A stretch of 64,000 nucleotides of DNA from an uncultured Bacilli bacterium (GCA_947599835.1 CANQFQ010000002.1:35402-99401); one strand, 5' to 3'. Counted from the first letter of the stretch, positions 41,238-44,668 are shown. The notes: generated by a model from the letters alone, not told the origin. Translations and numbers: made by a program.

Positions 41238-43841
41238 ATGGCATCAAAAAAAGTTAACAAAATTGATGATGAATTCATTACAAATGCAGATCAATCGATG
41301 ATTTTTGGTCCACTTGAAACCATTGTTAGTGAACGATTTGGTGCATATTCCAAATATATTATTCAAGATCGTGCTTTACCCGATATTCGAGATGGATTAA
41401 AGCCGGTTCAAAGAAGAATATTATTTGGGATGAATGAACTTGGAATTGTGGCAGACACTCCTTATAAAAAAGCCGCACGGGTTGTAGGGGATGTGATGGG
41501 GAAATATCACCCTCATGGCGATAGTTCTATTTATGATGCCATTGTCCGCATGAGTCAATGGTGGAAAAGTAATGAAGTTTTAATCGATATGCACGGAAAT
41601 AATGGTTCTTTAGATAATGACCCACCGGCAGCAATGCGTTATACGGAAGTTCGTCTTTCTCCGGTAGCAATGGAATTATTAAAAAATATTGATGAAGAAA
41701 CGGTAGAATTTACCTATAACTTTGATGATACATTAAAAGAACCAACCGTTTTGCCTACGCGATTTCCAACCTTACTAGTCAATGGGGCAAAAGGAATTGC
41801 TGCTGGATTTGCTACAGATATTCCACCTCACAATTTATCGGAAGTCGTAGATGGTGTAATTCATCGAATTAAAAATCCGAATTGTCGATTGGAAACCATG
41901 ATGGAGATTATCAAAGGCCCTGATTTTCCAACCGGGGGTATCGCCTTTGGAAAACAAGGAATTATCGATGCTTTTGAAACTGGTAAAGGCAAAATTGTTT
42001 TGAGAGCACGAAGTGAAATTATTGAAAATAAAAATCAAAGACAAATTGTGATTACTGAAATTCCTTATGATATTATCAAAATTGCCTTAGTAAAAAGAAT
42101 TGATGAAATTCGATTTAATAAGTTAATTTGGGGAATTGAAGAAGTTCGTGATGAAAGTGACCGTAATGGGTTAAGAATTGTTATTGATATTACAAAAGAA
42201 GCTGATCCACAATTAATTTTGAATTTTTTATATAAAGAAAGCGACTTACAAACTACTTATAATTATAACATGGTAGCCATTGATAATAAGACGCCAAAAC
42301 AAGTCGGTTTATTAGCTATCTTAGATGCCTATATTGCACACAAAAAAGAAGTTACTTTGCGAAAAAGTAAGTTTAATTATAATAAAAAAATGGCTCGTTT
42401 ACATATTATCGATGGTTTAATCAAGGCTGTATCCGTAATTGATGAATTAGTAGAAACCATTAAAAAGAGTCAAAATAAAGCCAATGCAAAAGAAAATATC
42501 ATGAGCAAATTTGGTTTTAGTGAAAAACAAGCCGAAGCTATTTTAATGTTGCAATTATATCGATTATCTTCTACAGATGTCGTAAAATTAGAAGATGAAA
42601 GAACGCAATTAAATTTAGATATTGCAACCTTACTCGATATTTTAGAAAACGAAACTTCTTTAAAAAATGTTATGATTGCCGAATTACGAGAAATTAAAAA
42701 TCGCTACGGCAGTGAAAGAAAAACTGAATTGCGGGATGAAGTTGAAGAGGTAGTTATTGATAAAGCCGCTACAATAATTAAAGAAGAAGTTATGGTTGCA
42801 GTTTCTCGGGATGGTTATGCAAAGCGTAGTCAAATGAAATCATATACGACCAGTAATCAAGTGCTTCCAGGATATAAACAAACGGATGCTATCGTTTCCA
42901 TTTGTCAGGCCAATACTTTAGATACTTTATTATTATTTACTAGTGGTGGATGTTTTATTTATCTACCTGTTTATGAATTAACTGAAAATAAATGGAAAGA
43001 TGAGGGTACGCATCTTAACAAAATCGTATCCTATGCATCTAATGATAAAATTATTGGTGTTATTGTGGTTCATGAATTTCGTGAAGATTTATACGTTGCT
43101 TTAGCAAGTTCATCAGGATATATCAAACGGACGCGATTATCCGAATTCGTTTTACAACGTTATACCAAAGCGGTTTCTTGTTTTAAATTAGGCGATGGGG
43201 ATTCTTTGACTGCTGCTTTTTTAACCAATGGAGGTTGTGATATTGCAACTTTATATCAAGATGGCCATATGGTTCGTTATAATGAAAATGAAGTCAGCAT
43301 TGTGGGTGTAAAAGCTGGCGGTGTCCGTAGTGGTTCACGTTCTCTTTCTTCAAAATTAATCGGTGGAATCGCGATTAATGACGATTTCAAACTGAATCTT
43401 ATGCTAGCTACTGATAAAGGTGGCGTGAAACCAGTTTATCCTCGCTATCTCAATGTCACAAGCAAAAATACGATGGGAACTTTATCATTTAAATCTTTCA
43501 AAAGTGATTTACATATGGCAGTTGGTGTGATTGCCTATGACGATGAAGATCGGATTCAAATTGTTACCAATTTTAAAACAATTGAAATTAAAGTGAGTGA
43601 TATTCCATATCAACCTATTGATAAAATTATTAAACAATATTTATCATTAGAACTTCGTGAAAAGGTTGAAGCCATCGTAACCACTAGGACCATTTATGTG
43701 GATCATCGGTTAAAGTCGAAAAAAATTGAAACGAAGAAACCTGAACAAACTTTTGCTTCTTTTGATGATAAGTTAGATGATGAAGAAAAAGCTAAAAAAG
43801 AAAAATACGCCAATATTTCTATCGAAGATTTATTTAAATGA
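41238..43841 (+). CDS. parC: DNA topoisomerase IV subunit A (GyrA/ParC family; no GyrA-box seen)
   Basis: 867 aa; catalytic region AMRYTEVRL; C-terminal domain lacks QRRGGKG GyrA box; start ATG 41238 with AAGGAGAG RBS. Confidence 0.82.
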
Positions 43842-44537
43842 TTAAACTAATCCTTCTTTTCTAAATTCAAAAAGAAGTTTAGTTAATGCTCTTTTTTCAA
43901 TTCTAGATACATAAGATCGGGAAATGTTAAACATCTTCCCGATTTCTTTTTGGGTCATTTCTTCATGGCCATTTAAACCATACCGATAAGAGATAATTTT
44001 CATTTCGGTTTCATCTAATATATTTAGAAATTTTTTAAGTAACATTAAATGATGTTCCTTATCTAATTTTTCTGATAAATCTTCGATAGGAGCGGGTATA
44101 ATATCAATTAATGATAGATCGCTACCATCGCTATCTTCTCCAATAGAATCAAATAAATATAAATCATTATTGGATTTTTTAGTGCTTCTTAGATGCATTA
44201 AAATTTCATTTTCAATACATCTTGAGGCATAAGTGGCTAGTTTATTTCCTTTTTCTTCATTATATGAGTCAATCGCCTTGATTAAACCAATGGTACCAAT
44301 GCTGACCAAATCATCAAATTGTTCATTACAATTTTCATATTTTTTACAAATATGCGCTACTAATCTTAAATTATGTTCAATGAGTTTATTTCTAGCTTCT
44401 TCTCTTTGATTTGTAAAAAGCAATTGGATATATTTTTCTTCATCTTCTTTGGATAAAGGAGAATGGAAAACACCATTTTTAACATAACCGACATAAAGAA
44501 TTAAATTTTTAAATAAAGAAATAATGGTTTGAAACAT
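43842..44537 (-). CDS. sigK: RNA polymerase sporulation sigma factor SigK (pro-sigma-K), uninterrupted
   Basis: 231 aa; near-collinear match by recall to SigK: pro-sequence then YVKNGVFHSPLS, LIEHNLRLVAHI, SIGTIGLIKAI, KLATYASRCIENEILMHLR, ISRSYVSRIEKRAL; stop codon immediately abuts parC stop (0-nt spacer). Confidence 0.88.
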   Translation of the reverse strand: MFQTIISLFKNLILYVGYVKNGVFHSPLSKEDEEKYIQLLFTNQREEARNKLIEHNLRLVAHICKKYENCNEQFDDLVSIGTIGLIKAIDSYNEEKGNKLATYASRCIENEILMHLRSTKKSNNDLYLFDSIGEDSDGSDLSLIDIIPAPIEDLSEKLDKEHHLMLLKKFLNILDETEMKIISYRYGLNGHEEMTQKEIGKMFNISRSYVSRIEKRALTKLLFEFRKEGLV

Positions 44538-44552
44538 GAAAACACCTCAATG

Positions 44553-44584
44553 TAAACTTATGACAAAAGAATTGAAAAATATGC
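44553..44584 (-). promoter_or_regulatory. candidate sigma-E-type (mother-cell) promoter for sigK with overlapping SpoIIID-like box
   Basis: minus-strand reads gcATATTtttcaattcttttgtCATAAGTT (ATATT-15-CATAxxT) ~20 nt before GAGGTG RBS; forward TATGACAAAA resembles SpoIIID WWRRACAR-Y. Confidence 0.3.
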
Positions 44585-44668
44585 TAAAAACGACAAAAAT
44601 AATCGCTGATTTTAATTCTTTCATTTATCTATTGATAAAAATATGGTATACTCATAGAAGGTGAGTTT

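Follow-up and report, generated by a model that had tools for sequence, protein, structure and literature searches.

In Bacillus subtilis, SigK (spoIVCB/spoIIIC) is made as a precursor with a pro-sequence of 21 residues that ends just before YVKN, the S21/Y22 bond being the cleavage site of SpoIVFB (PMC11486902), and its gene is associated with a skin element and a recombinase. sigma-E and sigma-K promoters have a common -10 element and differ at position 4 of the -35 element, which is T for sigma-E (ATA) and C for sigma-K (AC) (PMC517825, PMC3789822). Discrimination between T and C at this position was assigned by Eichenberger et al. to Gln217 of sigma-E and to the Arg found at the same place in sigma-K, a difference that is kept in all known sequences and sets -35 recognition (PMC517825). 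The C. difficile sigK gene has a skin element and no pro-sequence (PMC5025042), and is transcribed from tandem promoters with CATA-type -10 boxes, P1 being sigma-E-like with a poor -35 element and P2 of sigma-K type (PMC3789822). Convergent genes whose 3' ends share transcripts are a separate matter: reports on S. aureus sbrB/lexA, on Rickettsia convergent pairs and on Rho-limited antisense transcription in B. subtilis describe antisense RNA that arises from termination or read-through (PMC8745188, PMC3027695, PMC9931155).

Both subjects meet at one locus in a 64,000-nt stretch of DNA from an uncultured Bacilli bacterium (GCA_947599835.1 CANQFQ010000002.1:35402-99401; hereafter the window, with coordinates counted from its first letter). 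There, an intact sigK gene abuts, tail to tail, the gene for topoisomerase IV subunit A, parC. The best explanation of the locus, to which a probability of roughly 70% is given, is that a pro-sigma-K gene of the mother-cell cascade carries within its coding region, on the antisense strand, an intrinsic terminator for the parE-parC (parEC) transcript. This would set it apart from the convergent systems above in that the predicted terminator does not lie in a spacer, but shares its DNA with conserved codons of the opposing gene and is kept throughout a clade by codon choice, as judged here from sequence.

The gene encodes pro-SigK, the late mother-cell sporulation sigma factor of the sigma-70 family (group 3), as its scores against SigK models, its alignment with B. 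subtilis pro-sigma-K across the cleavage site and the discriminating Arg residue together indicate. It is one open reading frame (ORF) of 231 codons on the minus strand, from ATG at 44537 to TAA at 43844-43842. The protein passes the NCBIfam SigK subfamily model NF004471 (299.4 bits; cut-off 252) and scores far below the cut-offs of the SigE models (211.6 and 197.4 bits vs 339 and 348.6), the SigG models (93 bits at most) and the SigF models (105.5 bits at most). Against this, it misses the SigK equivalog model TIGR02846 by 14 bits (284.3 vs 298.65). Among PDB entries, the top match is pro-sigma-K of B. subtilis in complex with SpoIVFB (chain 8vjl_B, E = 3e-42), and all homologues with source names are SigK. 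In region 4.2, ISRSY(VSR) has Arg in the window protein and in all SigK rows of the alignment, and Gln in a SigE row (L037; ISQSYISR). SigE identity is thus rejected on both grounds, and alignment against SigK, SigE and SigG bears out the assignment to SigK made in an earlier reading from the sequence alone (the sequence-only reading). As a separate observation, five loci at 45-47% identity (L037, L038, L040, L045 and L052) are SigE genes, with ...GSSDALPPPL and ISQSYISR, after a spoIIGA-like ORF; the spoIIGA-sigE pair is thus carried by related uncultured Bacilli.

No interruption is found in the gene. The SigK profile match is continuous over positions 6-230 of 235, the neighbours are parC and yqeG, and neither a split coding sequence nor an element bearing a recombinase is present at this locus, just as the sequence-only reading had stated. 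The B. subtilis and C. difficile genes differ in this respect, but an uninterrupted sigK is the usual state and the absence of skin is unsurprising. A short pro-sequence before YVKN had likewise been noticed. Residues 7-123 align with residues 11-126 of 8vjl_B, which pairs G17/Y18 with S21/Y22 of the B. subtilis protein, V-K-N following both. The alignment predicts cleavage at G17/Y18 in the host, after a pro-sequence of 17 residues instead of 21 and with Gly instead of Ser before the site. In having a pro-sequence, the gene is also the opposite of that of C. difficile.

The parC stop codon TGA (43839-43841) is directly followed by TTA (43842-43844), the complement of the sigK TAA, and the two stops abut with 0 nt between them, as had been claimed. 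At the other end of parC, the listed ORF start at 41211 overlaps parE by 26 nt, and relatives align only from residue 9 or 10; the true start is therefore probably M10, an ATG at 41238 directly after the parE stop. The C-terminal tail of ParC (43480-43841, plus strand) extends about 120 aa beyond the parC_Gpos model and is rich in K, E and D; its last residues are conserved in the clade, and the tail before them is not.

By its relatives, the host is an uncultured, low-GC, small-genome gut bacillus related to Candidatus (Ca.) Caccosoma (RFN20/CAG-631); the GC content of the window is 28-36%. The closest genomes are metagenome-assembled genomes (MAGs) named 'uncultured Bacilli' and Ca. Caccosoma faecigallinarum, with SigK 82-86% identical, and a more distant SigK group (52-57% identical) includes Ca. 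Coprosoma and Firmicutes CAG:822, and genomes of 1.3-1.5 Mb. Caccosoma corresponds to GTDB genus CAG-631 (family CAG-631, order RFN20) and Coprosoma to CAG-822 (order RF39) (PMC8035907). Spore formation by CAG-631 was already predicted from gene content by Field et al. (PMC10868615), so the presence of sigK in this host is unsurprising. Clade loci compared were L001-L003 and L054-L067 (SigK identity 62-86%). The order yqeG-sigK-parC-parE, with yqeG divergent from sigK and parC convergent, is found in every Caccosoma-like clade locus fetched, and in RF39-type loci parC is not beside sigK. On this comparison, the tail-to-tail layout is a clade character. The stops touch (0 nt) in the window, L001, L003 and L058, and are 1 nt apart in L002 and L059 and 2 nt apart in L054; the genes overlap by 4 nt in L060-L062 and by 8 nt in L057, L063 and L064.

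There is no space for a terminator between the two genes, and the sequence-only reading was right that none lies there: a standard terminator scan at the junction gives just a weak 5-bp stem. A lenient search for a hairpin followed by a U-tract finds on the plus strand AGATCGGGAAATGT-TAA-ACATCTTCCCGATTT and then CTTTTT, 73-110 nt past the parC stop (43914-43951), inside sigK. This hairpin, followed by UUUCUUUUU, has the sequence form of an intrinsic terminator; it escaped the standard scan on account of the 12-nt loop of its perfect stem and the bulge in its longer one. Folded alone, the hairpin has a 14-bp stem with one bulge and a minimum free energy of -14.5 kcal/mol (z = -2.4). The same lenient scan of the spacers at other convergent junctions finds hairpins with U-tracts near 6485, 21532/21565 and 38444/38470, at -9 to -13 kcal/mol, energies comparable to that of the parC hairpin, which is thus of normal terminator strength for this genome. 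The usual solution at a convergent junction here is a perfect bidirectional terminator, AAAAAATCGGTT(C/G)AACCGATTTTTT at 38444-38470, which fills the 24-nt gap between a UPF0154 gene (38209-38445, plus strand) and plsY (38470-39174, minus strand).

Conservation is what gives the embedded hairpin its weight. It is present in all 12 distinct clade sequences, with a 9-bp consensus stem by RNAalifold in 12/12, and occurs once in the window, which rules out a repeated element. As the peptide itself is conserved, synonymous sites were tested. In 11 full-length sigK genes, 36 of the 37 conserved 4-6-fold degenerate columns outside the stem use two to five codons and one is invariant, whereas all three such columns in the stem are invariant (G200 GGG, S206 TCC, R207 CGA; Fisher p = 4e-4). 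I199 ATC is also invariant in the stem. All four invariant codons are among the less used ones in this genome (GGG 0.10, TCC 0.11, CGA 0.18, ATC 0.18), and the flanking codons for S208 and T195 each occur with all four third bases across relatives. The part of sigK that the hairpin overprints encodes the DNA-reading helix in region 4.2, and one of its codons is that of the Arg by which sigma-K promoter specificity is defined. Outgroup sigK genes (RF39 and other lineages) encode EIAKELGISR in AT-rich codons and have the same antisense U-tract with no hairpin beside it; the GGG of the stem is supplied by a change of Ala to Gly (EIAK to EIGK). The RF39-type genes and those of other gut Bacilli MAGs resemble the window gene in being uninterrupted and in having a pro-sequence, but they do not face parC, and at several of these loci sigK is followed by an ordinary terminator-like hairpin. 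The clade with the embedded putative terminator would be that in which parC was pushed against sigK.

Several observations tell against a terminator at this position. The shuffle score is modest, 5 of 200 shuffles folding as well; about 14 further sites with a hairpin and a U-tract are given by the lenient scan inside other coding regions of the window, and a single match of this kind is weak without evidence of conservation. True covariation was not found in the hairpin, whose stem pairs are nearly invariant, and codon-level constraint was used in its place for that reason; such constraint could also have a different cause, such as a structure in sigK mRNA. A role of the inverted repeat in codons 199-207 in sigK mRNA, or as a protein-binding palindrome in DNA, unrelated to parC termination, might involve mRNA stability, translation pausing or an operator. 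The hairpin can also form in sigK-sense RNA (-10.9 to -12.7 kcal/mol), and its arms make an 8-bp perfect DNA palindrome in most sequences. However, it is weaker in the sigK sense than in the parC sense in 12/12 sequences, and only on the parC-sense strand does a U-tract come after the hairpin. The single variable stem pair changes from A-U to G.U in three sequences, and this pair and a basal G.U pair are possible only in parC-sense RNA; the palindrome and sigK-sense pairing are broken by them. The hairpin is also confined to genes on which parC converges, and a function in sigK mRNA or as a palindrome is improbable.

The sequence-only reading had proposed that, with no terminator, both transcripts cross freely into the other gene, giving full mutual antisense transcription. 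This fits the zero intergenic space and the unconvincing result of the standard scan, and its sigK half stands. No hairpin with a U-tract was found in the sigK sense for about 550 nt downstream of the sigK stop in the lenient search, none at a stricter threshold through parC and parE, and no sigK terminator in 1.5 kb of antisense parC; RNAalifold of 11 relatives gives no conserved structure downstream of sigK in this sense. A conserved U-rich run there (antisense of ParC ...KKEKY) is not preceded by a hairpin. sigK is thus, by these searches, without a recognisable intrinsic terminator of its own, which is a further difference from B. subtilis, and its transcript probably extends into parC as antisense RNA, to be ended by Rho or by chance; Rho is known to limit antisense transcription in B. 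subtilis (PMC9931155). The parC half does not stand as well: the conserved hairpin and U-tract 73-110 nt past the parC stop, the synonymous-site constraint on the hairpin and its restriction to the clade where sigK faces parC all argue against unimpeded crossing, which is unlikely. parC transcripts most likely end about 105-110 nt past the stop, at an intrinsic terminator overprinted on the region 4.2 codons of sigK, and antisense coverage of sigK is, given this hairpin and U-tract, probably limited to its last ~110 nt.

Upstream of sigK, a 131-nt spacer separates it from yqeG. Promoters were scored against kmATAtt-N13-15-CATAcanT, a consensus taken in part from PMC517825 and PMC3789822, with a sigma-E geometry of 12 ± 1 between 8-nt and 10-nt blocks, roughly 14 ± 1 between the 7-mer and the 8-mer. 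The best match in the spacer (12/14), with the sigma-E-type T at -35 position 4, is GCATATT (44584-44578), 15 nt and CATAAGTT (44562-44555), followed on the minus strand by TACATT, GAGGTG (44548-44543), TTTTC and ATG. The sequence-only reading had found this ATATT-15-box element, but placed it 20 nt before the ribosome-binding site (RBS); the distance from the end of the box is 6 nt to the RBS and 17 nt to the ATG. Matches of at least 12/14 on both strands (128 kb) number 18 vs 26 ± 5 in shuffles, and the motif is not rare; the chance probability of such a match at this position is about 0.003-0.004. Footprinting used 11 distinct sequences, a metagenome scan for close relatives having added three loci. 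In most of the distinct relatives, an nATAtatT box stands 5-7 nt ahead of the RBS and is preceded, at a distance of 13-15 nt, by an mCATAww box; the remainder of the spacer is unalignable.

A sigma-E-type promoter upstream of sigK is plausible, and which of two -10 boxes it uses is rated about equally. The upstream box, taken above as a -35 element, itself fits CATAnnnT, and this conserved CATAwwyT box (44583-44576) may be the real -10 element of a sigma-E/K-type promoter with a weak -35 and a leader of about 32 nt, possibly in tandem with the RBS-proximal promoter. Its C is kept in most of the distinct relatives, whereas the C of the RBS-proximal box is kept in just 2/11 (the window and L054), which speaks against the proximal arrangement. 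The 29 nt between the two boxes of L054 are too many for one promoter. GATTATT-14-CATATTTT scores 11/14, and the P1/P2 pair of C. difficile sigK, in which P1 has a poor -35, is a precedent (PMC3789822). On the other hand, relatives have no conserved -35 element upstream of the distal box, the 13-15-nt spacing of the two boxes suits the sigma-E geometry, and RF39-type sigK genes have a strongly conserved CATATATT box 7 nt before the RBS, at the proximal position (CACATATATTT at the same distance from the RBS). The distal box as the true -10 element is given somewhat less than even odds. With the proximal promoter, the mRNA would begin at or beside the Shine-Dalgarno sequence, which is unusual, but the arrangement recurs in the RF39 group.

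A SpoIIID-like box noticed in this region fared less well. The SpoIIID consensus is reported to be WWRRACAR-Y (Halberg and Kroos 1994), a 2004 paper showing it as logos only; TATGACAAAA has two mismatches to it, at positions 3 and 10, and GACA or TGTC is absent at the corresponding place from the upstream regions of all relatives. By composition, a GACAR core would occur somewhere in the spacer with a chance of about 0.3. The box is rejected, and SpoIIID dependence as in B. subtilis is unsupported. On the yqeG side of the spacer (44634-44668, plus strand), a conserved extended -10-like TGnTATACT is seen at the same place in L001, L002, L054 and L057-L059; its TATACT (44647-44652) is separated from the yqeG RBS by about 6 nt. 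No part of the spacer is better conserved than this element, whose reverse complement is AGTATAnCATA, and in L061 it overlaps the sigK-side CATA box.

What the sequences show is the identity of the gene, its layout, the conservation and the codon constraint; use of the promoter, processing and termination are inferred. Taken together, the embedded-terminator explanation would work as follows. A mother-cell-type promoter in the 131-nt spacer, with a -35 of sigma-E type as expected in a sigma-E to sigma-K cascade, would drive sigK late in sporulation, and SigK would be made as an inactive precursor, to be activated by loss of the ~17-residue pro-sequence (G17/Y18) in a SpoIVFB-type pathway triggered by SpoIVB, encoded 13 kb away, as it is also encoded in B. 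subtilis. Transcription of parE-parC would go on beyond the parC stop, opposite the 3' end of sigK, and be ended ~105-110 nt later by the hairpin (antisense of codons 199-208) and the U-tract (antisense of Q-K-E-I). Such termination would spare the first ~590 nt of sigK, the sigK promoter and the downstream yqeG operon from read-through, and the sigK transcript, its end left to Rho or chance, would extend into the parC tail as antisense RNA.

The tight junction itself has about an even chance of being neutral compaction in a genome of 1.3-1.5 Mb, without functional consequence. The relatives' genomes are of this size, the gap varies from +2 to -8 nt as drift would give, and many gene pairs in the window abut or overlap. 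This is compatible with an embedded terminator, as compaction may have forced the terminator into sigK, but selection on at least the putative terminator is evident from the codon constraint in the hairpin. It is doubtful that the conserved 3' overlap is a regulatory device, in which vegetative parEC transcription dampens leaky sigK expression and late sigK transcription silences topoisomerase IV; silencing would take place in the terminal mother cell, through colliding polymerases or antisense RNA. Were this so, chromosome decatenation would be tied to the final step of the sporulation cascade, for which there is no support here.

The gene by itself adds little, as SigK with a pro-sequence and without skin is a common state and the lineage was already predicted to form spores. 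sigK here is an ordinary gene, and only the embedded, codon-constrained putative terminator is of some wider interest: it is a clear clade-wide example of a predicted intrinsic terminator on the antisense strand of another gene's conserved codons, with rare-codon fixation as its mark. It illustrates transcription-unit insulation in very compact genomes and gives a reason for synonymous-site constraint in a regulator. The conserved two-box upstream region may also serve as a starting motif for mother-cell promoters in uncultured, reduced-genome spore-formers.

Table. Features at and around the sigK-parC junction, in window coordinates
Feature	Coordinates	Strand	Basis
parC, topoisomerase IV subunit A	41211-43841	+	TIGR01061 parC_Gpos, 910 bits vs cut-off 813, residues 34-757
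Stop-to-stop junction TGA/TTA, zero intergenic bases	43839-43844	.	direct sequence reading
sigK, intact 231-aa pro-sigma-K gene	43842-44537	-	NCBIfam profile scores, PDB match, named homologues
Hairpin of putative parEC intrinsic terminator, antisense to sigK codons 199-208 (I-G-K-M-F-N-I-S-R-S)	43914-43945	+	fold, conservation, codon constraint
Arg207 codon CGA in ISRSYVSR, sigma-K-type residue for -35 reading, also in the embedded hairpin stem	43917-43919	-	alignment and PMC517825
U-tract TTTCTTTTT after hairpin, antisense of Q196-K197-E198-I199	43943-43951	+	invariant in all clade sequences
Predicted pro-sequence, codons 1-17, MFQTIISLFKNLILYVG, removed before Y18-V-K-N	44487-44537	-	alignment to 8vjl_B
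RBS GAGGTG, 5 nt before ATG	44543-44548	-	kept in relatives
Candidate proximal promoter of sigma-E type, GCATATT (-35), 15-nt spacer, CATAAGTT (-10)	44555-44584	-	12/14 consensus match
SpoIIID-like TATGACAAAA, judged a chance match	44559-44568	+	overlaps proximal -10 box
Alternative distal promoter, GATTATT (44604-44598), 14-nt spacer, CATATTTT (44583-44576), predicted 5' untranslated region ~32 nt	44576-44604	-	11/14
yqeG, divergent upstream neighbour of sigK, first gene of yqeG-yqeH-yhbY-nadD/yqeK-rsfS cluster	44669-45181	+	TIGR01668 and neighbour families
spoIVB	57531-58541	+	TIGR02860, 310.7 vs cut-off 305.25
spo0A	58669-59496	+	TIGR02875, 252.9 vs cut-off 200

The wider neighbourhood provides a sporulation context for sigK, with spoIVB and spo0A both above their curated cut-offs within the window. 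plsY, parE and parC lie on the parC side of sigK, and yqeG, yqeH, yhbY, nadD/yqeK, rsfS and mtnN on the other; nusB, xseA, tlyA, recN, spoIVB and spo0A follow farther along. These neighbours differ from those of B. subtilis sigK. Rfam and tRNA scans of the window gave no matches.

Some further features of the window may be recorded. Two leucine-rich-repeat proteins, of 1401 aa (48868-53073, plus strand) and 675 aa (19448-21475, plus strand), match the HupY/LrrG adhesin model and, weakly, the Mycoplasma Gli349 model, and are probably surface proteins of a host-associated organism. A protein of 446 aa (1389-2729, plus strand) has ankyrin repeats, which are uncommon in bacteria and often tied to host interaction. 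A long ORF with a lipoprotein-like signal (MHTITKKISMFVCFLSLIFVGCSNQ...), absent from the ORF lists, begins at about 61732 on the plus strand and appears to pass the window end (61732-64000); sigma-E-like matches at 61713-61741, overlapping its start, and at 61913-61942, inside it, were set aside as chance. dapA (10142-10999, minus strand), possibly part of a sporulation-linked dipicolinate locus, is preceded by an ORF of 277 aa (11001-11834, minus strand) without a family match, within which, 145 nt before dapA, lies a sigma-E/K-like motif, TGATATT-14-CATAGATT (11172-11144).

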